NCBI RefSeq assembly: GCF_022846255.1
Contig: NZ_AP025682.1
DNA from: Escherichia coli
Lineage (GTDB): Bacteria > Pseudomonadota > Gammaproteobacteria > Enterobacterales > Enterobacteriaceae
Strand: one strand, 5' to 3'
Length of the DNA stretch: 64,000 nucleotides
Shown in pieces: positions 39,333-50,677 of this stretch; position 1 is the stretch's first letter, and each line of letters begins with the position of its first letter. The position numbers and the translations under genes are program-made. The notes beneath the pieces were generated by a model, which saw nothing but the letters and a program-made list of their open reading frames with translations, was not told the DNA's origin and made no database searches.

Positions 39333-40217
39333 GGGATGAAGATGAGATGATTCGCAGGCCTGGGTAATAGTTGGAAAACAACGTCCGTTCCTGGCACAGA
39401 GCAGACCATCGGACTAAACTGAAGGTCCTCTCTGTGCGAGAAACGGAAGTTAGCAATTGTGATACAGACGTGGGGCATTACTCGCTTTACAGTGTGTTAA
39501 TCAATTGGAAACAGGTCAGAATTTATTGGGTGGAATGACACCTTTAAACTTCTTGCGCATCGCAAGGAATATCTCCACCAGACGGTAAGACAGTAGATTG
39601 CGCCACAAGTCCTCAGAATGCCCTTTGCTGGGTTAACCACACGTCGTAATCATCCTTCCAGTGCAGCGGATCAAGATCCGTAATGCTCATAGTCACGCGA
39701 TTTCAAATACAAGCCCAGTGGTGTTATCCGTGAGCTGGACAGTGCTTCCGGCAACATGACTGAGACAGACAAAAAATCAGTTAGTACAGCATTGACTCAG
39801 GTTGAGCAGGAGTTAAAACAAACTGGGCTGGAGCAGTAGAAGCCTGCAGTGAATTCCCTGAATCAGGCGATTAAGTTGGCTTAAGAGTCCGTGTATGCCA
39901 TGTGCCGCGAGATGTCGTGCTATACGTGAAAGTCAGCGATATATATCGTTTTGAAGATGATTTAGGTTACGGGAGTGTCTCTGGGTGATGTATTACTTCA
40001 TCGACATCGGCTACGCACGGGTTGCCGCGATGCAGCGGATGGAAGCTGTCTGGGAAAAGAAAGCTCCGCTTGCTAATATTAGTACATCCGATGAAAAATC
40101 GTGTGTGAAAGTTGCAGATTCGTAATATACTAATGAAGAATGGAGATGTATTTTATATAATAAAAACATCTAAGTAGAGCTTTTTATTTTAAATCCTTCA
40201 TTATTACTGGAGATTTT

Positions 40218-41996
40218 ATGGGTTTTTATAATGACGCACTGAGTAAAATATATAGTGAAGATGATGATTTCCTAATTATAGGATTAACAGGGAGGACGGG
40301 GTCAGGCTGTTCAACAGTTTCTAATATACTGTCATCAGAATCAAGTGAGATAAAGCATTCTCTATTTAACGGTGATTACCCTAAGTCGAATGAAGAAAGA
40401 AAAGAGCGGGTTCTATTTAAATATTTTTCCGTGTCATGGGTTCCATTTATAAAGATACAAGCAAGTTCCATACTGACATTGTGTTTATCAAAGGACTTTG
40501 ATGGTAAGCTGAATAAATTTATTCGGGAAGTGACGGAGTTAGGTAATGACCAAAGAATCCTAGAGTCAACAGTTAATGATCTTGAATCTATACTAAAAGA
40601 AATTAAAGCTAAAGATGAAAGCTCTGATCATGATATAGATGATAAGATAAAATTCATAAATGAATATCTAATAAAAGCGAATACACAAATTAAATCCATA
40701 TTTAAGAACAAGGCTGACTATATAAAACTATATCAAGCTATAGGTAATAATTATAGATCTAGTGGGATGTACCATGACAGTTCATTTAGTGATGATTTCC
40801 ATGGTTTTTTTCTTCCTAAAAAAATAAATGATATAATTCAAAGATTAAGAACCTTAGCAAAAGAAAAGAACACAAAAACTGGAGAAAAGAAACCTATTTA
40901 TATAGTTATTGATGCTATAAGAAATCCGTTCGAAGCAACATACTTCCAAGATAGATACTCATCATTTTATTTAATGGCTGTTTCTACAGAAGAGCATTAC
41001 AGGCATCAAAGGCTTAGAGAACAAGGTTTAACTGATGCTGAGATAAAAGATATTGATGCAAAAGAATACCGTAAATCATCTTTGGATGAGAAGTCATCAT
41101 ATATATATCAGAATATACAGTCTTGTTTAGAAATATCAGACATCTATGTTGAGAATCCGGAAGAGGAAAATGTTGTTTGTCGGTACTCAGGATTGGCTAA
41201 TCAATTAATTAAATTCACTTCATTAATGAAGCGTCCCGGTATAATAACTCCATCAAATGTTGAACGTTGCATGCAGATAGCATATACAGCTAAGTTGAAC
41301 TCTGGTTGTATATCCAGGCAGGTAGGCGCTGCAGTATCTGATAGTTCATTTTCAATTAAGTCTATTGGTTGGAATGATGTACCAAGTGGTCAAGTTCCTT
41401 GCTCTTTAAGGGATAGGTTTGATTTGTCTGAGGGGATTGATGATATTGCTTACTCTGAATTCGAAAAGAACGAAAATAGTTTCATTCGAAAAATAGATAG
41501 CACTAAGATTATTTTTTTAGATGTTAAAAATAAAGGAATGAGAGCTCCATTTTGTTTTAAAACAGAATGGAATAATATCCTTGATGATAAATACAAAGAA
41601 GATCTACGGGTCGAGCATAAGTTAAATGATGATGAGTTTGCTATTATTGACAAAATAAAGTCTAACGCTAATCAAGTTTTTACAAGATCACTTCATGCTG
41701 AAGAGAATGCTTTCTTACAAATATCTAAGTATGGTGGCGTTGGTATACAGAATGGTTTTTTGTTCACAACAGCAAGCCCTTGTGAATTATGTTCTAAAAA
41801 AGCGTATCAATTAGGGATCAAACAAATATATTACATAGATCCATACCCTGGTATAGCAATGAGGAATATTTTAAACGCAGGGAGCAATAAACCATTGCTT
41901 AAGCTTTTCAATGGTGCAATAGGTAAGGCATTCCATAATTTTTACACGCCAAGAATGGCTTATAAAGATGAGCTTTCAGCAAGATCTAGGGGGTGA
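40218..41996 (+). CDS. Two-domain P-loop NTPase / dCMP-cytidine deaminase protein (AvcD / kinase-Dcd-like anti-phage candidate)
   Basis: 592-aa ORF with GGAG Shine-Dalgarno. N-terminus has Walker-A-like GLTGRTGSGCST. C-terminus has HAEENA (about 41694) and PCELC (about 41778) zinc-binding deaminase motifs. Strongly AT-rich, with about 0.8 kb non-coding on each side. Confidence 0.7.
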   Translation: MGFYNDALSKIYSEDDDFLIIGLTGRTGSGCSTVSNILSSESSEIKHSLFNGDYPKSNEERKERVLFKYFSVSWVPFIKIQASSILTLCLSKDFDGKLNKFIREVTELGNDQRILESTVNDLESILKEIKAKDESSDHDIDDKIKFINEYLIKANTQIKSIFKNKADYIKLYQAIGNNYRSSGMYHDSSFSDDFHGFFLPKKINDIIQRLRTLAKEKNTKTGEKKPIYIVIDAIRNPFEATYFQDRYSSFYLMAVSTEEHYRHQRLREQGLTDAEIKDIDAKEYRKSSLDEKSSYIYQNIQSCLEISDIYVENPEEENVVCRYSGLANQLIKFTSLMKRPGIITPSNVERCMQIAYTAKLNSGCISRQVGAAVSDSSFSIKSIGWNDVPSGQVPCSLRDRFDLSEGIDDIAYSEFEKNENSFIRKIDSTKIIFLDVKNKGMRAPFCFKTEWNNILDDKYKEDLRVEHKLNDDEFAIIDKIKSNANQVFTRSLHAEENAFLQISKYGGVGIQNGFLFTTASPCELCSKKAYQLGIKQIYYIDPYPGIAMRNILNAGSNKPLLKLFNGAIGKAFHNFYTPRMAYKDELSARSRG

Positions 41997-43098: not shown

Positions 43099-43800
43099 TC
43101 AGATATCACTTCGGGAAGTTGATAACAACTTTAATTCTGACTCAAGTTCATCAACTCTTTCAGTCAGTTTCTGGATATGGTGAATCAGTGGAACAACCAG
43201 ACGTTCGTACATTACACCTTCGACAACAAGGCCATTGCTGGAAATAGCTTCAGGAGCATCATCTTCGTTAGCTGGTCGCCAGTGTACAAACTGAGGAGCA
43301 ATTTCTCCCACTTCCTCGGCAATCAATCCGTAGAATCCCCAGTCACTCCTGTCATTTTCGCATTGCGACCTGTACCACACAGGGCGCATCCTGAAAATGA
43401 GATCGGCGTGCTCTGAATCTATTGTCTCTACTGAATGTTTATAGCGAATAGACGATGTTGACCGCAGTACAGACGAAATTGCAGGGTCAGGATTAAGATA
43501 AAGATTTGCCGCCGCTGTAGTCGTGCCCAATTCCCATAAATAAAACGCTTCACGGCCAGTCAGCGGGTAAAAATCTCCACCATAACGACCGCTTTCCAGA
43601 TCGTTCACTTCCAGTTTGTTTTTCAGCTTATTATCAACTTCAGTTTTTGTGTATCTGGTGCTGATATCCTGCTTTGCACTGGTCATATCAGTCTGAAGCG
43701 TTGATACTTTTCCGTTAATTGAGGAAATATCTTCCTTAGTTTTACTGACATCTCCCTTTAGCGTGGTGATATCTCCTGGAATTACTGTCGATGTAGCCAT
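43099..43800 (-). CDS. Tail-fibre-associated protein with C-terminal intramolecular-chaperone-like domain
   Basis: 233-aa ORF with coiled-coil-like N-terminal half and C-terminal segment (GLIAEEVGEIAPQFV...ERLVVPLIHHIQKL) resembling the Peptidase_S74 / tail-fibre chaperone domain. Downstream of stf. Confidence 0.55.
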   Translation of the reverse strand: MATSTVIPGDITTLKGDVSKTKEDISSINGKVSTLQTDMTSAKQDISTRYTKTEVDNKLKNKLEVNDLESGRYGGDFYPLTGREAFYLWELGTTTAAANLYLNPDPAISSVLRSTSSIRYKHSVETIDSEHADLIFRMRPVWYRSQCENDRSDWGFYGLIAEEVGEIAPQFVHWRPANEDDAPEAISSNGLVVEGVMYERLVVPLIHHIQKLTERVDELESELKLLSTSRSDI

Positions 43801-43809
43801 TTGTCTCCC

Positions 43810-44091
43810 TCACATCCAGCCACGAAGTTGATGCTCAACAACAACCGCATATTTATCGAATATTGACGATTTTTTTGCATCATTAATGATGCGCACGTTT
43901 ACAAAATATCCGTCTTCCTTAACACATACCGGTTCGCCATCTTCAGTCAGTTCTCCGGTTTCTTTGTACACGTTACCTATCACGTCAATAAGAATATTAT
44001 CCTGCATCGACTCGTCATCATAATAGCCAGTGCTCTCCATAAAGGCCGAAAAGTCGGCCCTGTCTGCAAATTTGAGTGTTAAATCTTTCAT
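43810..44091 (-). CDS. Hypothetical 93-aa acidic protein
   Basis: ORF tightly packed between stf and the next gene. No recognisable motif. Confidence 0.45.
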   Translation of the reverse strand: MKDLTLKFADRADFSAFMESTGYYDDESMQDNILIDVIGNVYKETGELTEDGEPVCVKEDGYFVNVRIINDAKKSSIFDKYAVVVEHQLRGWM

Positions 44092-46472
44092 TAGATTGAC
44101 TCCCCCACCTGAGCATCAGTCAATGCCTTGTGCCATATTCTGAAATTCCTGACATGACCAAATAAATGACGTAACCCGGCAGTAGTCTGGCCTCCAATAC
44201 GGATAATTGCGGTGTTCTGAATACAGGACCATGTGGTTTTTGTTTCGCTGGATATACGCCCGTTACTTACTGAGCACGTAGACTGATCTGACTTTACACG
44301 CATCCCCATAACCATTTTTTCAAGCGATGCGTTTTCGTTTACCCGTCTGTTAGCTCCTCCAATATCGCAATAAGGAAATCCGTCGTAATCTGTTGAACGA
44401 CCGAAGCCAAGAATAATAGCCGCTCCGGTTTGATGACCGCCGGTGTCAAAAACACGCGGAGCTGCATTTGGCGTTTTATACCAGTTCTTATGTACCTCAC
44501 AAAGAACCGTAAAAGGAAGATTATAAAGATTATTCTTAATGGGAACTGTAACTATATCGCTTGCGCGGGTCGCCGCCGTCGTTCCTGATATAATAAAAGA
44601 TGATACACAAGGCCCATTTTCTACTTGTGGGGTGGCCAGATAAATATAGTCACCAGATACGGTTGCCCCGCCCTGCTTAGGAGAATACTGTATCTGAGAA
44701 CCTATTTTTAACTCCCCATCAATTGCCTGAATTGTTGCCTCTGCAAAAATCCATCCGGTAGCTTCGTCCTTTCTGACTCTCGCAGTAATCCTTGAGGCAG
44801 CACCGCCTGTCATATTAATTTCAAGCGTTTGTGTATCAATATACGCATCACCAAGAAAAGTTGTTGCGCTACCGTCATATTTATCAAACCGGATACGCAA
44901 CCTTACCTGCAGTTCTGTTTTAAAACGACATGAGGTTGTCACGTGTTTATTATCGCCTGAGACATCAACTGACTTTGTTGCAGCAATTGATGCCATATTA
45001 ATGGCTGAGGTTTGCCCAATCAGAGAATCGTTGCAGACAAACTTTCCATAGGTAAAACCAAAACTATCCGTCCCTGTTTCGGGCACATCCATATTTGACG
45101 ATCGCCCCCAACTGGCAGGGTTTTCCGAATTGAGCATGTAGTTTGTTCTTTGCCCCTCAATAAGCAGGCCATCACGTTCAAACCGTGGCTCGTCAATGGC
45201 AGCCTCTGTCAGCACACCAGATTTATTAATGTAAGTTGCTTTTGATGCGCGTTTAAACTTTACAACCTTATCGCCAGGCATCGTTATTTCATCATCACCA
45301 ATAACAATCTTTTTATATGACGGCGAAAAGCCCGTAATCATATCCAGTGAATCGTTAAACGGTATCCACACATCGGGAAGCGGCTGCAATACTTGTTTAT
45401 ACGGCTCCGCAGCCTGGCTTGCATACTCTCTGGCTGCGTCTTCACTTGCTTTTGCAGCCGTCTGGCTTGCAGCGGATGCTTTCGCCGAGTTAGCCGCCGC
45501 AGTCTCGCTCGCCTTTGCGTTGGTTTCACTGGTTTTTGCAGCTTTTTGACTGTTGGCTGATGCAGTGGCAGAAGCAGCCGCCGCGCTTGCAGAGCCAGCT
45601 GCAGCACTCTCGCTTTCGGCTGCTGCATCCTGACTGCTTTTCGCCGCAGTTTCACTGGCTTTGGCATTCGTTTCGCTGGTTTTCGCTGCCGTCTGGCTGG
45701 ACTTTGCGTTGGTTTCGCTGGTTTTTGCAGCTTTTTGACTGTTGGCTGATGCAGTGGCAGAAGAAGCCGCCGCACTTGCAGAACCAGCTGCAGCACTCTC
45801 GCTTTCGGCTGCTGCATCCTGACTGCTTTTCGCCGCAGTTTCACTGGCTTTGGCATTCGTTTCGCTGGTTTTCGCTGCCGTCTGGCTGGACTTTGCGTTG
45901 GTTTCGCTCGTCTTTGCGGCTGTCTCGCTGTTTTTCGCATTGGTTTCTGATTTTTTGGCTGCTGTCGCGGAGTTTGCCGATGCAGTCTGTGAGGTCGCTG
46001 CCGCCTGTGCGCTGTTAGCTGCATTCGTTTCTGAGGTTTTCGCCGCGTTCTTCGATGATGCCGCTGCAGTTTCGGATTTCTTTGCCGCCGCTGCGCTCTG
46101 AGAGGCGGCTTCGGCGTTGCGTGCCGCTTCTTCCACCATTTCCTGAAAACGGCGCAATGCCTCCGGCATGACATCATCTTCCGTCATGGCACCGAGAAAA
46201 TCATTCAGCGTCCCCGGACTGGAACCTTCATAGACGGTAATGGTCCCAACATGTGATGGCTGAGAACCCTCAATCCACAGGATGACGCTGTACTGACCAT
46301 ACTCAACGTCCATACTGTAACGCCCGGCTTCATCAGGATTTTCAGAGGTCACCGTGTTCACCAATACCGTGGTGCTGTTACGCTTTGCCTTCAGTTGAAT
46401 AGTGCAGTTCTGTATTGGTTTTCCCGCACCATCTTTCAGCACACCTGAGATTTTTACTGCTGCCATATCCAC
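44091..46472 (-). CDS. stf: Lambda-like side tail fibre protein Stf
   Basis: N-terminus MAAVKISGVLKDGAGKPIQNCTIQLKAKRNSTTVLVNTVTSENPDEAGRYSMDVEYGQYSV matches lambda Stf. Long Ala/Ser/Thr/Lys-rich repeat region and a divergent C-terminal domain. Confidence 0.9.
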   Translation of the reverse strand: MDMAAVKISGVLKDGAGKPIQNCTIQLKAKRNSTTVLVNTVTSENPDEAGRYSMDVEYGQYSVILWIEGSQPSHVGTITVYEGSSPGTLNDFLGAMTEDDVMPEALRRFQEMVEEAARNAEAASQSAAAAKKSETAAASSKNAAKTSETNAANSAQAAATSQTASANSATAAKKSETNAKNSETAAKTSETNAKSSQTAAKTSETNAKASETAAKSSQDAAAESESAAAGSASAAASSATASANSQKAAKTSETNAKSSQTAAKTSETNAKASETAAKSSQDAAAESESAAAGSASAAAASATASANSQKAAKTSETNAKASETAAANSAKASAASQTAAKASEDAAREYASQAAEPYKQVLQPLPDVWIPFNDSLDMITGFSPSYKKIVIGDDEITMPGDKVVKFKRASKATYINKSGVLTEAAIDEPRFERDGLLIEGQRTNYMLNSENPASWGRSSNMDVPETGTDSFGFTYGKFVCNDSLIGQTSAINMASIAATKSVDVSGDNKHVTTSCRFKTELQVRLRIRFDKYDGSATTFLGDAYIDTQTLEINMTGGAASRITARVRKDEATGWIFAEATIQAIDGELKIGSQIQYSPKQGGATVSGDYIYLATPQVENGPCVSSFIISGTTAATRASDIVTVPIKNNLYNLPFTVLCEVHKNWYKTPNAAPRVFDTGGHQTGAAIILGFGRSTDYDGFPYCDIGGANRRVNENASLEKMVMGMRVKSDQSTCSVSNGRISSETKTTWSCIQNTAIIRIGGQTTAGLRHLFGHVRNFRIWHKALTDAQVGESI
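45530..45890. repeat. Tandem direct repeat (about 180 bp x 2) inside stf
   Basis: Near-identical 180-nt units starting about 45538 and 45718, encoding a repeated 60-aa Ala/Ser/Thr/Lys-rich block. Confidence 0.75.
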
Positions 46473-46530: not shown

Positions 46531-47130
46531 TCAGAACTTATAACCGACACCCACGATGAAACCGTCAGTGCGCCAGTCGCCACTGCCGGAGCCTTCATAA
46601 GCAATATCAATGGCCACGGATTCGGTCGGGTTAAACTGCACGCCAGCTCCCCACGCCAGAGACGTGTTGCTGTGGCGATCGTCATCACTTCCGGTCAGCA
46701 CATCGTGCGTTTTCCCCTTGTTGTCAGTTACGCGGAGATAATCCCCGGAGAACGTCGAAACACGGCTGTAAGCCACACCTGCCATCGCATAAGCACTGAA
46801 CCATTCATTCACGCGTACAGATGGCCCCGCCATCATGCTGAACCAGCGGTTACGCACTGAATCTTCATGCCAGCGGGTATCGCTGTAATGCGTTTTTTGC
46901 TCATCTTTGGCATTGGCATAACTGAATGACGTCACCAGCCCCAGCGTGTCCGTAAACTCATAACGGTATTTCACGTTAATCCCGTTCAGATCATCGCTGC
47001 CTGGCATATCAGTATGGGTCTGAAGATACCCGGCGCTTAGTGTGGACTGATGCTCTGCTGCGCTTGCTGGCGTACCAGCGGCAACCAGCCAGACTACTGC
47101 GGACAGAATAACAGCACATAATTTACGCAT
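46531..47130 (-). CDS. lom: Lom outer-membrane protein (Ail/PagC/OmpX family)
   Basis: 199-aa ORF with signal peptide and beta-barrel character, between J and stf as in lambda. Confidence 0.9.
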   Translation of the reverse strand: MRKLCAVILSAVVWLVAAGTPASAAEHQSTLSAGYLQTHTDMPGSDDLNGINVKYRYEFTDTLGLVTSFSYANAKDEQKTHYSDTRWHEDSVRNRWFSMMAGPSVRVNEWFSAYAMAGVAYSRVSTFSGDYLRVTDNKGKTHDVLTGSDDDRHSNTSLAWGAGVQFNPTESVAIDIAYEGSGSGDWRTDGFIVGVGYKF

Positions 47131-47197: not shown

Positions 47198-50100
47198 TCA
47201 GCTGATACTGATGCCTGCGGTGGCTTTCTTCATCACCACAACCAGCAAATCGCTGATACTTGCTGTGGGATACCAGTCATTTACCAGCCATGCTGACACC
47301 GAAAACTCCAGCGTCATGTGACCGTGACCGGCAGGCATATCAATAACGCCACTGTAAATCAGCGTATTATCCAACGCGGTACGGTTATAAATTTCAGCAC
47401 CGTTTTTCCGCACTATCAGACGGCATGAGGAGTAAATATCAGTATGCTCTCTCTCATGTTTAGCGCCGCTGAATGCCACCGCCGGAATAACAATCTGCCG
47501 GTCAAACGGCTGATCGTCATAAATCCTGACGGTAATGGTCCCTGATGGCCACCGTTCCGGTGCACGGGAGTCCCGGGGGAAAGCTTTGCCCACTGTTTTA
47601 ACGAGATCGCCTTCAATCTGGTTCGCGGACAGTTTTCCCAGAACCCGGCAGTTCTCGTTAATCGTGACGTTGTTGAGCGTCCCGGAGTTCGCATTCACGT
47701 TACCGCTGATATCGGCATTTTTCGCCGTCAGCCGCCCGTCCGGTGTCAGGGAAAATGCCGGAGGATTACCGCCGCTGGTAATGGTGGGAGCCGTCAGATA
47801 TTTCAGGAACACTTCGTTCATGAATATCTGATCGCCCTGACCAACAAACATCGGCTTTGTGTTGCCATTTGCAGGATTAACCATCGCAATCCTGTCCGCC
47901 GCCAGCAGCACCTGACTCTGCATGCCGTCAGGGGTGTTCTCAATACCGGCACCAATACCCGCGATATAAAGGCGTCCGTCCCGCATCTGCTGCAGCTTCA
48001 CAGCCCACATGCTGTTCAGGTTATTATTTGTATCAACCTGAACCTTCTGTATCTGCTGAATTGCCGCACTCTGGTCTTCCAGTTTCTTATTGACGGTCTG
48101 CGTGATTTCATTGCTGACACCCGTAATGGACGTCCTGATTTCAGCCAGGTCAGGCGCAAGCTGACCGTTATCAATCTGCGTCCACAACTCCTGAGCCAGA
48201 TGGGTTTTCCCTATCTCTCCTTTGAAAAAATTCAGATAGCCGGATGCATCATCACTCGGCTGGCCAACAGCCTCCACAAATGCCGATTTGCCAACGGTGT
48301 TCACACTGCGGATGTAAAAATAATAATCATGGCCCGGTTTGATATTGATACTGGCGGCTATCCAGTACAGCGCCGTGCCAAGATAGCGTGCTGTGGTTTC
48401 AACCTGCCTGATATCCGCAATCCGCTTTTCCGAGAACCAGAACTCAAACTGTACCGTCGGATCATAAACCGCAAGATGCGGCGTGGCGGTTATCTGAAAA
48501 TACCCCGGTGTCAGCTCAATCTGCGACGGCGCTGCCGGTGCGGCAATCCGGAACGATACCGATGCCGGATCGCCCTGCTGCCCCCACGCATTTACCGCCC
48601 GGACTGTCAGCCTGTAGTTCCCCAGCGCCAGTTGCCTGAAGCGGTATGTGGTTTCCGTCGTCCGGGCCATGCTGACCAGCCGCTCACTGCCGTCGTCCGC
48701 TGCCACGGTAAGGCGAAGCAGGAAGCTCACGCCCTTCACCACCTTCGGCGTGTCCCATCGCGCCAGCACCTGATATTCCCCGCTGTCTGCGGTGACTTCG
48801 GCGGTCAGGTGCTGCACCGCTGGCGGCGTGACACCATTCACCGTGCCGCTCTGGTCGCCGTCAAAGTGCGCCCCGTTATCCACGATGGCTTCTTTTTCCG
48901 GTACATGCTGCACGGCGGTGATGGCATACGTACCGTCATCGTTCTCCCGGATACTCACACAGCGGAACAGGCGCTGGCGCAGCGTCGGCAGCTTCAGCCC
49001 CCATACGCTGTATTCAGCAACACCGTCAGGAACACGGCTCACTTTCACCTTCACGCCGTCGGTGACGGACTGAACCTCCACGCTGACCGGACTCCCCTGC
49101 CCGTCAACCAGGCTTATCAGCGTGGTGCCGGAGGATGGCAGCGTGATTTCACGGTCGAGCGTCAGCGTCCGGGTCTGGCTGTTTACCGCCAGCACGCGCC
49201 CGCCGGTGCTGATACCGGCATAGTCATCATCACAGATTTCAATGACATCGCCCGGCACATGGCGAAGCCCTTCTGCGCCCACGCTGAAGTCCACGGTCTG
49301 CGTTTCCAGCAGTTCTGTTTTAATCAGCCACAGCCCGGCGCGGTGTGCCTGCCCCCGGCTGGTACAGCCAAAAGCATCCATCTTCGTGACGTTACGACCG
49401 TAACGGGCAATGGCCTGCGTGTCCTCCACAAGCTCTGTCGCCGTCTCCCAGCCGTTGTTCGGGTCAATCCAGTTCACCTCAACGGCATTATGGCGGTCTT
49501 TCAGGGCGCTGAAGCTGTAGCGGAACGGCGCGCCATCATCCGGCATCACCACATTACTGCGGTTATAGGTCCACACCTTATCCGACGGTCGGTCCTGCAC
49601 GAACGTCAGCGTCTGCCCGTTCCATACCGGCATACAGCGCATCGCCGAGCAGAAATCACTGAGCACATCCCACGCCTTGCGCTGTGTGGTCAGGTACGCA
49701 TTACAGGTGATGCGCGGCTCCGTGCCGCCAAAACCGTCCGGCACTGACTGGTCGCAATACTGGCCGATGACATACAGCGCCCATTTATCCACATCTGCCG
49801 CACCAAGACGTTTCCCCATGCCGTAGCGCGGGTGGGTCAGCATATCCCACAGACACCAGGCCATGTTGTTGCTGTATGCTGGCTTAAACGTTCCGTCCCA
49901 GATACCGCTGTATTGCCGCGTCTGCGGGTTATAGTTCGACGGCACCTGCAGAATACGCCCGCGCAGATGATAATTACGGCTCACCTGCTGGCTGCCGAAC
50001 TGCTCCGAATCCACCTGCACGCCGACCAGTGCCGTGTTCGGGTAGCACTGTTTCACATCGATGATTTCGGTGTATGACGACCAGAGCGTTTTGTTCTGCA

Positions 50101-50677
50101 GCTGGTCTGTGGTGCTGTCCGGCGTCATCCTGCGCATCCGGATATTAAACGGGCGCGGCGGCAGGTTATCCACCACCACCGAGGCCAGATACTGCGAGGT
50201 GGTTTTGCCCTTAATGGTGATGTCTTTTTCCGTCACCCAGCCACCGTTACGTTGTATCTGAACCAGCAGGCGGACTTCCGATGGATTCCTGTCCCCCTTT
50301 GAGGTGGTTTCCACCAGTGCCTGCACACCGAAGGTAAAGCGCAGACGGTCGATGTTTGCCGACGTGATGGTGCGGGTGATCGGCGTGTCGTATTTCACTT
50401 CCGTACCCAGCACCGTCTCGGAACCGGAGGATTCAAATCCCTCCGGCGGTGTCTGCTCCTGCTCACCTGCCCGGAACACCACCGTGACACCGGAGATGTT
50501 GGTATTCCCCTCACTGTCCAGCACCGGCGTACTGTTCAGCAGCACGCTTTTTAATCCATCCACCGGACCTTCAACCGGCCCTTCACTGATGGCATCAATC
50601 ACACTCAGCAACTGCGTGGATTTCAGGTTGTCCTTCGCTTCGCGCGGGGTATGCCCCTTACTGCTGCCTTTACCCAT
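47198..50677 (-). CDS. J: Tail tip / host-specificity protein J
   Basis: 1159-aa ORF. The N-terminal about 800 aa match lambda J closely. The C-terminal receptor-binding part diverges. Confidence 0.95.

Follow-up and report, generated by a model that had tools for sequence, protein, structure and literature searches.

The side tail fibre gene stf (44091-46472, minus strand) in the window, i.e. the whole 64,000-nucleotide stretch of Escherichia coli DNA analyzed here, contains a tandem array that likely reflects an old in-frame 189-bp duplication in the proximal coiled-coil rod of a lambda-type Stf protein, with the copy number shifted by unequal homologous exchange. The array is a genuine length polymorphism of an ordinary kind, with related E. 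coli prophages having one, two or perhaps three blocks.

The product of the gene is a side tail fibre of the lambda type, and the prophage is lambdoid. Counted from the GTG codon, the open reading frame (ORF) spans 793 aa; annotations of the homologues start at the ATG at 46466, which yields 791 aa. [quoted passage not shown] By analogy with this structure, the protein would be a homotrimer that forms a collar where the tail tube meets the tail tip. A BLASTP comparison with lambda orf-401 shows 58% identity over 341 aa (E-value 5e-75). The genomic context is also that of lambda and related loci, with genes in the order J, lom, stf, all on the minus strand of the late tail operon: J, the central tail fibre/host-specificity protein (47198-50677, minus strand), is an ORF of 1159 aa annotated as gpJ with J Pfam domains in homologous loci, and lom, immediately upstream of stf, encodes an Ail/Lom outer-membrane protein (46531-47130, minus strand; PF06316, E-value 2.9e-128). 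The domain matches, the similarity to lambda and the position after J and lom bear out the preliminary description, in which the gene had been named a side tail fibre gene. A further feature shared with lambda (Ur-lambda) Stf is a long rod of xxSxxxA heptads directly after the collar.

The resemblance to lambda does not extend to the distal part of the protein. The BLASTP comparison with lambda orf-401 detects no similarity past aa 342, and the C-terminal region (aa 437-637; 44562-45164, minus strand) instead matches NCBIfam NF048003, GTA_spike_fiber, a family of GTA head-spike-fibre-like domains (E-value 7.6e-14, 52.6 bits, cutoff 36), and presumably belongs to the receptor-binding module. 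Lambda Stf has a hinge, a T4 gp37-like distal domain and the gene for the Tfa assembly protein downstream, whereas neither a gp37-like distal part nor a downstream Tfa chaperone gene was found at this locus. The genes that follow stf encode a 93-aa protein (43810-44091, minus strand; phrog_1361), which directly follows stf in all related loci, and a 233-aa short fibre-like protein (43099-43800, minus strand) with a C-terminal intramolecular chaperone domain (Peptidase_S74, PF13884, aa 116-172) and matches to tail-fibre C-terminal PHROGs. Thus, the N-terminal two-thirds of the protein make it a member of the Stf family, whose distal module is here swapped for another. Three other long ORFs in this region, on the plus strand at 45515-46018 and 45850-46101 and in another frame of the minus strand at 45338-46177, were rejected as genes given that they overlap the strongly supported stf frame; such spurious ORFs result from the stop-poor, repetitive, GCN/AGC-rich sequence.

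The array (45513-45917, minus strand) comprises 2.14 copies of a unit of 189 bp, i.e. 63 codons or nine heptads. Tandem Repeats Finder reports a period of 189 with 2.3 copies and 94% matches at 45495-45921, and an offset scan of the region yields a single standout self-match, at offset 189 (score 192, compared to 15 for the next-best offset), in which 45513-45728 pairs with 45702-45917 (216 nt, 6 mismatches, 97.2% identity). When the sequence is shuffled in 21-nt (heptad) blocks, the top self-match score is 45, and in a codon shuffle it is 17; the match at offset 189 is well above chance as well as above the background heptad periodicity, so that at least two head-to-tail copies are present. 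The preliminary description had reported a perfect-looking duplication of a 180-bp, 60-aa unit at 45530-45890. These positions, which fall inside the array, do contain a near-identical tandem duplication, and self-alignment shows that the units are not substantially diverged, but the array is longer, the repeat is near-perfect rather than perfect, and the unit size has to be corrected to 189 bp. The correction is structurally relevant because 63 residues make nine heptads, whereas 60 residues would not divide evenly into heptads.

Mapping of the self-match onto the reading frame places unit 1 at aa 187-249 (45726-45914, minus strand), where it consists of the heptads KTSETNA, KSSQTAA, KTSETNA, KASETAA, KSSQDAA, AESESAA, AGSASAA, ASSATAS and ANSQKAA. 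Unit 2 (aa 250-312; 45537-45725, minus strand) differs from it at 5 of the 189 nucleotides, with four synonymous changes and one replacement of Ser by Ala, and the longest tract of perfect identity between the two is 125 nt. The offset self-match also includes the first 24 nt of a third unit (KTSETNAK; 45513-45536, minus strand), a short direct homology flanking the array that could seed re-duplication.

The part of the protein that contains the array is a predicted alpha-helical rod (aa 101-362; 45387-46172, minus strand). It includes 33 uninterrupted xxSxxxA heptads without a register break (aa 124-354; 45411-46103), with serine in position 3 in 32 and alanine in position 7 in 29 of these; alanine occupies the core position 'a' and serine the core position 'd'. 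An AF2 model of aa 95-377 (pLDDT 79.5) contains two helices, aa 101-233 and aa 240-362, and folds the monomer back at aa 234-239 into a helical hairpin (pTM 0.33) that is presumably a monomer artefact. Only the secondary structure was taken from this model; for a rod that is trimeric, the matches of such a hairpin in a fold search would be meaningless. The rod aligns in register with the heptads of the proximal trimeric coiled coil of lambda Stf, a protein that consists of a collar (residues 1-91), a linker, a proximal coiled coil (residues 102-393), a hinge and a distal part (PMC12617516). By homology to lambda, the rod of the window protein would be a trimeric coiled coil as well, and the Ala/Ser/Thr/Lys-rich shaft to which the preliminary description had assigned the duplicated block is indeed the counterpart of the proximal lambda coiled coil (PMC12617516). 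The lambda rod contains about 39 heptads and lacks a near-identical 63-aa duplication, whereas the window protein has 33 heptads with the duplication. The rod lies between the N-terminal collar, which would fix the fibre to the tail tip, and the presumed C-terminal receptor-binding module.

Since each unit comprises exactly nine heptads, the coiled-coil register is preserved when a unit is gained or lost. The rod should lengthen by about 9.3 nm (63 x 0.148 nm) per unit with the heptad phase kept, so that rods with one, two and three units would be about 29, 39 and 48 nm long, respectively; rod length may, in turn, affect adsorption. It is quite unlikely that the Ala/Ser-rich region is instead a flexible low-complexity linker, in which case the duplication would be neutral, with no defined effect on fibre geometry. 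Such a linker is compatible with the strongly biased composition (Ala, Ser, Thr, Lys, Glu), with a coiled-coil core that would hold only the small residues Ala and Ser, with the low complexity of the DNA that is manifest in the antisense and alternative-frame ORFs, and with two natural length variants that are out of heptad phase, namely BEC1-S17-ESBL-09, which lacks 41 aa, and P0125, which lacks 16 aa at the distal end. (P0125, with 774 aa, had been taken for lambda Stf but is actually a close relative of the window protein, and the real lambda sequence was used instead.) Against the linker stand the regularity of the 33 consecutive in-register heptads, the AF2 helices over aa 101-362 and the modelling of the homologous lambda region as a proximal coiled-coil domain in the Ur-lambda cryo-ET/AlphaFold3 work (PMC12617516). 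The evolutionary evidence points the same way: in the old, diverged pairs of units, 17-19 of the 28-29 nucleotide differences are synonymous, which implies purifying selection on the protein, and about 99% of the carriers retain two units.

Comparison of repeat number among related prophages reveals three classes of protein length, 728, 791 and 854 aa, that correspond to one, two and three units and differ by steps of exactly 63 aa, i.e. by whole units; the preliminary description had anticipated that copy number could vary. The two-unit class is dominant, with 4554 member sequences in one cluster alone, and also includes the deposited phage genome records 2G7b, HannyBb, Tritos and PhiR63_1, which match over the whole gene without gaps. 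One-unit alleles were identified in the complete genomes MSB1_4I, AVS0655, CB209 and FFFEB2 and in the isolated phage IdasGreatGrand. Three-unit alleles are present in only three draft assemblies (GCA_016595135.1, GCA_016108505.1 and GCA_036902485.1), and junction-specific queries found none in complete genomes. EFF60 and SCU-306, which had been considered as variants of intermediate length, are IS-disrupted or frameshifted pseudogenes and were left out of the counts.

The frequencies of these forms were estimated in a census of 5,426 complete genomes with junction-specific queries of 294 nt. These replaced the earlier three-unit queries, both synthetic and real, because with the latter overlapping pieces are joined and two-unit alleles are also covered at 100%, so that copy number can be read only from the span of the record. 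The unit is present in about 1,049 genomes, with one unit in about 0.5% of the carriers; a one-unit query was covered at 80% or more in only 10 records. Units 1 and 2 are only about 85% identical in most genomes, and the window allele belongs to a minority that makes up about 26 of roughly 1,089 records: in the census, the window-type junction is found at 95% identity or higher in 26 records, compared to 976 records at 80-90%.

The preliminary description also cautioned that such repeats can collapse in assemblies, and this caution is legitimate. The 125 nt of perfect identity between the window units is longer than most short-read k-mers, so that copy number could be misjudged, and a one-unit chimera is the expected product of a short-read collapse. 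More generally, in drafts, collapse of the de Bruijn graph or an extra loop through the shared tract mimics one-unit chimeras and three-unit chimeras of the type found in one of the three-unit alleles (L001, see below), which makes variants from draft assemblies weaker evidence. The two-unit structure in the window could, accordingly, be suspected of being an assembly artefact, with a true count of one (a spurious extra loop) or of three or more (collapse), all the more so as one-unit and three-unit forms do occur in the databases. Such an artefact is highly improbable. The 5 positions that differ between the window units imply at least two distinct units in the real genome, the complete genome of E. 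coli CFSAN018748 contains a unit 2 identical to that of the window and a unit 1 that is 5 nt off, and two units are the overwhelming consensus among both complete genomes and deposited phage genome records.

Mapping of informative sites shows that the units of one-unit alleles are chimeric: they switch from unit-1 to unit-2 states between unit nucleotides 16-83, 73-119 or 110-119. The middle unit of the three-unit allele L001 is the reciprocal product of these single-unit chimeras, as expected of misaligned exchange in a copy-number-variable repeat, although graph mis-assembly could mimic this pattern in drafts. The other two three-unit alleles, L014 and L015, show a pattern different from that of L001, which implies at least two expansion events. 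The chimeric junction units are as predicted from recombination, in agreement with the original proposal that the array is recombination-prone. The first 83 nt of the unit are nearly identical between units 1 and 2, and unequal homologous exchange in this tract, or elsewhere in the unit, would remove or add exactly one unit and leave chimeric units as products. Under this scenario, the duplication would be old, given the roughly 85% identity and mainly synonymous differences of the units in most alleles. Both window units carry the chimeric pattern of a one-unit allele, with a unit-1 5-prime part and a unit-2 3-prime part, which suggests a contraction followed by re-duplication; the most economical history of the window allele would therefore be contraction to one unit, re-duplication, and then 5 substitutions or conversion patches. 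Partners for ectopic recombination are offered by paralogous fibre genes, which occupy a median of 2-3 and up to 13 places per genome. For phage Rad52-like recombinases, 23-27 bp of identical sequence suffices and divergence is tolerated, and stf is a place where lambda recombines with defective prophages (PMC3945230).

Repeated gain and loss of units in independent events that differ in exchange point, the presence of both one-unit and two-unit forms among the deposited phage genome records and the repeated occurrence of in-register block duplications across the Stf family (independent duplications of 14, 42 and 140 aa were detected in other members) could also be taken to indicate an adaptive, contingency-like locus with frequent switching, by which fibre reach would be adjusted to the thickness of the host surface. 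That the array is such a locus is very unlikely: the variants are rare, with three units seen in no complete genome, the divergence of the units in most alleles implies lower switching rates, and a 189-bp unit in two copies is unlike a typical hypermutable tract.

In streptococcal M proteins and in the stalks of trimeric autotransporter adhesins, the size of the coiled coil varies through intragenic recombination between repeat blocks. The similarity to stf lies in the heptad-based blocks and in the in-frame length variants generated by unequal homologous exchange; however, those are bacterial surface proteins under immune selection, whereas Stf is a virion fibre in which variants are rare. 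Among phage proteins, tandem duplications in the tip of the T4 tail fibre gp37 reportedly expand the host range (Tetart et al. 1996), and duplications or deletions in tape-measure proteins are said to change tail length (work of Katsura and Hendrix). These cases resemble the stf repeat in being in-frame changes, such as tandem duplications, in a phage tail or fibre gene that would alter a physical property of the virion, but the gp37 duplications affect the receptor-binding tip and the tape-measure changes alter the tail tube, whereas the stf repeat is in the shaft of a fibre. [quoted passage not shown] A search of the literature for heptad-block duplication in Stf or in fibre shafts found nothing specific.

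It is conceivable, albeit unlikely, that the nine-heptad block is a modular 'spacer' that is gained and lost reversibly in steps of about 9 nm, matching the reach of the side fibre to the thickness of the O-antigen or capsule or to the length of the J fibre. If so, shaft length, and not just the receptor-binding tip, would be a selectable host-range or adsorption-rate trait, and the 14-, 42- and 140-aa block duplications in other Stf proteins would be further examples. For phage engineering, in which chimeras of lambda Stf already serve as delivery vehicles (PMC11338833), the present case suggests that whole nine-heptad blocks could be inserted into or taken out of the proximal rod with the heptad register kept, and both one-unit and two-unit forms exist among deposited phage genomes; this would be a natural means of varying fibre reach. 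On the practical side, the stf region can be mis-assembled, and caution is advisable where short reads indicate one or two units. The stf repeat is an ordinary case, a further instance of a known phenomenon that does not overturn the current understanding; it is a small, clean case of concerted evolution and unequal exchange in a virion gene, with both reciprocal products represented in public data.

The repeat lies within a gene (44091-46472, minus strand; 793 aa from a GTG codon, or 791 aa from the ATG at 46466, at which homologues are annotated to start) whose identification as a side tail fibre gene, stf, in the preliminary description is well founded. Amino acids 5-134 match PF08400, “prophage tail fibre N-terminal” (E 2e-63), and aa 5-97 match PDB entries 9e7m/9mgh (Ur-lambda Stf residues 1-94, the sole solved part of that protein; E 3.5e-46). 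A BLASTP alignment with lambda orf-401 (58% identity over 341 aa, E 5e-75) covers the collar domain and extends into the Ala/Ser-rich region. Upstream are lom (46531-47130, minus strand; PF06316, E 3e-128) and J (47198-50677, minus strand), in the order J, lom, stf found in lambda. In contrast, the C-terminal half of the protein is unrelated to that of lambda Stf: aa 437-637 (44562-45164, minus strand) match NCBIfam NF048003, “GTA_spike_fiber”, a phage head spike fibre domain (E 7.6e-14), a sequence search finds no PDB relative of this module, and no tfa (Tfa) homologue is encoded downstream of stf in the window. Given the N-terminal matches, the distinct C-terminal half and the lack of tfa, the protein is, by sequence comparison, a lambda-type Stf over the N-terminal two-thirds and carries a different distal module. 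Directly after stf, a 93-aa protein of unknown function (phrog_1361; 43810-44091, minus strand) is conserved, followed by a 233-aa protein (43099-43800, minus strand; 234 or 346 aa in relatives) with an N-terminal coiled-coil-like segment and a Peptidase_S74 intramolecular-chaperone domain, which could represent a second short fibre or an Stf accessory. An IS200C transposase is inserted between lom and stf in strains CFSAN018748 and EFF60; in the latter, stf is additionally broken up.

At the prophage end, a 592-aa gene (40218-41996, plus strand) matches the PADLOC “dCTPase” model (E 5e-127), which represents dCTP-deaminase anti-phage defence. The encoded protein has a cytidine/dCMP deaminase domain (aa 347-539), and the gene looks like defence cargo carried by the prophage. 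The chromosomal match (LysR regulator, alpha/beta hydrolase) stops at ~39406 and the prophage-type match begins at ~39381, so that 39381-39406 is the probable prophage/chromosome junction, and the ~26-bp overlap could be the att core. The sole tRNA in the window, tRNA-Ser (GGA) at 5754-5841 (plus strand), is far from the prophage end and has no obvious relation to it.

The 45300-46100 region is GC-rich and strongly periodic. Tandem Repeats Finder identifies an array at 45495-45921 (period 189, 2.3 copies, 94% matches), with weaker sub-periods of 21 and 42 nt, and in an offset scan one self-match stands out, at offset 189 (score 192, against 15 for the runner-up), which pairs 45513-45728 with 45702-45917 over 216 nt with 6 mismatches (97.2%). 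Shuffles of 21-nt blocks, which keep the heptad background, score at most 45, and codon shuffles at most 17; low complexity thus does not account for the repeat, which is real. Thus, the tandem duplication reported in stf holds, as does its location at 45530-45890, with the array being slightly wider (45513-45917); the unit, however, is not 180 nt (60 aa) but 189 nt (63 codons). Unit 1 spans 45726-45914 (aa 187-249) and unit 2 spans 45537-45725 (aa 250-312), both on the minus strand, and the first 8 codons of the unit are repeated directly after unit 2 (45513-45536, minus strand). Each unit consists of exactly nine heptads: KTSETNA KSSQTAA KTSETNA KASETAA KSSQDAA AESESAA AGSASAA A(S/A)SATAS ANSQKAA. 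The “perfect-looking” repeat is near-identical, with 5 nt separating the two full units (4 synonymous changes and one Ser/Ala replacement). With these five differences, this genome must contain at least two distinct units (copy number as assembled); short-read assembly could misjudge the copy number because the units share a 125-nt perfect tract. Long stop-free ORFs over the array (45515-46018 and 45850-46101, plus strand; 45338-46177, minus strand, other frame) were rejected as genes, being by-products of repetitive GCN/AGC-rich coding sequence; in the matching region of lambda (1248-1868), the reference annotation still carries an antisense ORF, orf206b.

As the preliminary description anticipated, the number of units varies among related prophages. 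By length, the 120 best database homologues form classes of 728 aa (one unit, 5 clusters), about 790 aa (two units, about 110 clusters, one with 4554 member sequences) and 854 aa (three units, 3 clusters), separated by exactly 63 aa; a heptad-by-heptad printout reveals the presence or absence of the whole block as the sole difference. Ungapped whole-gene matches identify two units in the deposited phage genome records 2G7b, HannyBb, Tritos and PhiR63_1, and phage IdasGreatGrand has one. The unit is present in about 1,049 of 5,426 complete E. coli genomes, only 10 records of which cover a synthetic one-unit query by at least 80%. The one-unit form is based on four complete genomes with clean alleles (MSB1_4I, AVS0655, CB209 and FFFEB2, of which CB209 and FFFEB2 carry one-unit and two-unit alleles side by side), one phage genome, and other gene contexts in which a single unit occurs, including the 1014-aa protein P0123 and a fibre gene of a 106-kb plasmid. 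The latter (NZ_OZ369471.1, 52423-54753; 776 aa, “phage head spike fiber domain-containing protein”; about 25 sibling plasmids) shares one unit with the window stf, at 97% identity for the unit and its 3-prime flank; its match stops short of the 5-prime part of the query and no prophage tail fibre N-terminal domain is annotated, which suggests a mosaic joint within the heptad array. No three-unit allele was found among the 5,426 complete genomes, and the three 854-aa alleles all come from draft assemblies. The collapse risk noted in the preliminary description is genuine, given the 125-nt tract: graph collapse would yield one-unit chimeras. Since such collapse, or an extra loop, mimics one-unit chimeras and those of the type seen in the three-unit allele L001, variants from draft assemblies, above all the three-unit form, are tentative.

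Comparison of the units suggests how copy number changes. In the common alleles (protein P0072, FDAARGOS_1304 and APEC O1), the units differ at 28-29 of 189 nt (~85% identity), with 17-19 of the differences in synonymous codons and only 6-7 amino-acid changes; this mostly synonymous divergence marks the duplication as old and protein-constrained. Nearly all these differences fall within unit nt 84-189, leaving nt 1-83 almost unchanged between the units, with a 5-prime tract of ~68 nt of perfect identity. Informative sites were mapped for switches between unit-1 and unit-2 states in each variant unit. The single unit of MSB1_4I matches unit 1 at sites 9 and 15 and unit 2 from site 84 onward, site 108 excepted; that of the one-unit allele L002 switches between nt 73 and 119, and that of IdasGreatGrand between nt 110 and 119, with isolated exceptions at sites 45 and 151. 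The middle unit of L001 is the reciprocal chimera (unit-2 states at 9 and 15, unit-1 states from 84). In the three-unit alleles L014 and L015, units one and two differ at sites 186 and 189 only, a pattern unlike that of L001, which implies at least two separate expansion events. These chimeras with varied switch points bear out the expectation that the repeats are recombination-prone and are the products expected of misaligned homologous exchange, whereby unequal exchange between units would add or remove a whole unit and leave a chimeric one. For phage Rad52-type recombinases, as little as 23-27 bp of identity is enough, and they act on sequences down to 78% identical; and lambda recombines with defective prophages at stf (PMC3945230). 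With such low demands, multiple related fibre segments per genome (median 2-3, maximum 13) and, in some genomes (CB209 and FFFEB2 among them), alleles of both lengths, the conditions for misaligned exchange are present.

In the window allele, both units have unit-1 states at all four 5-prime informative sites and unit-2 states at the 3-prime sites (from 120), except site 141 in unit 1, so that both carry the mosaic that marks a one-unit allele. At unit 2 the complete genome CFSAN018748 has exactly the window's sequence; the window's unit 1 departs from its CFSAN018748 counterpart in a five-site block (nt 89-123) that matches unit 2 and looks like a conversion patch. Two conversion events could have produced this allele equally well; the best explanation offered is contraction to one unit followed by re-duplication. 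Such re-duplication may have been seeded by the 24-27 nt unit-start repeat after the array. The window-type “type 2 / type 2” junction occurs at 80-90% identity in 976 records and at 95% identity or higher in only 26 of about 1,089, so the “perfect-looking” appearance is a property of a minority lineage.

The units belong to a rod of 33 unbroken heptads (aa 124-354), with Ser at position 3 in 32 of 33 and Ala at position 7 in 29 of 33, that is, a coiled-coil register with Ala at “a” and Ser at “d”; lambda Stf has the same register over ~39 heptads. Ur-lambda Stf is a trimeric fibre of five parts: collar (1-91), linker (92-101), proximal coiled coil (102-393), hinge and distal domain (PMC12617516). 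An AlphaFold2 single-chain model of aa 95-377 predicts helix at aa 101-233 and 240-362 (mean pLDDT 79.5) and folds back at aa 234-239, which tends to be the usual outcome when a trimeric rod is modelled as a monomer. At ~0.148 nm per coiled-coil residue, 63 residues would add ~9.3 nm, and the helical span of ~262 residues (aa 101-362) would measure ~39 nm, compared with ~29 nm for one unit and ~48 nm for three. Preservation of the heptads is the rule but not absolute. Strains 203740 and ATCC 43886 and protein P0124 lack one heptad; in BEC1-S17-ESBL-09 (2264227-2266476), an apparently intact stf has a 41-aa rod deletion that shifts the heptad phase by one residue, a “skip”-type discontinuity, which shows that the rod can accommodate at least one break in register.

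Among representatives with the Stf collar domain clustered at 50% identity, the run of heptads varies from a few to about 36, with independent in-register block duplications of 140 aa (20 heptads) in P0264 and 42 aa in P0234 and P0236, and a 14-aa block repeated eight times, in register, in P0220; hence block duplication is a general way in which the rod changes across this family. Variants are rare and two diverged units have long been retained, which suggests that the two-unit length is under stabilising selection and does not often switch adaptively. Since the side fibres of Ur-lambda exceed the central fibre in length and are probably the first to touch the cell (PMC12617516), rod length could, by analogy, affect reach and adsorption rate. 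The duplication is an ordinary case of something already known, in which a tandem repeat within a fibrous phage protein changes through unequal recombination; one reading of greater import is that rod length might be a tuned host-interaction trait.
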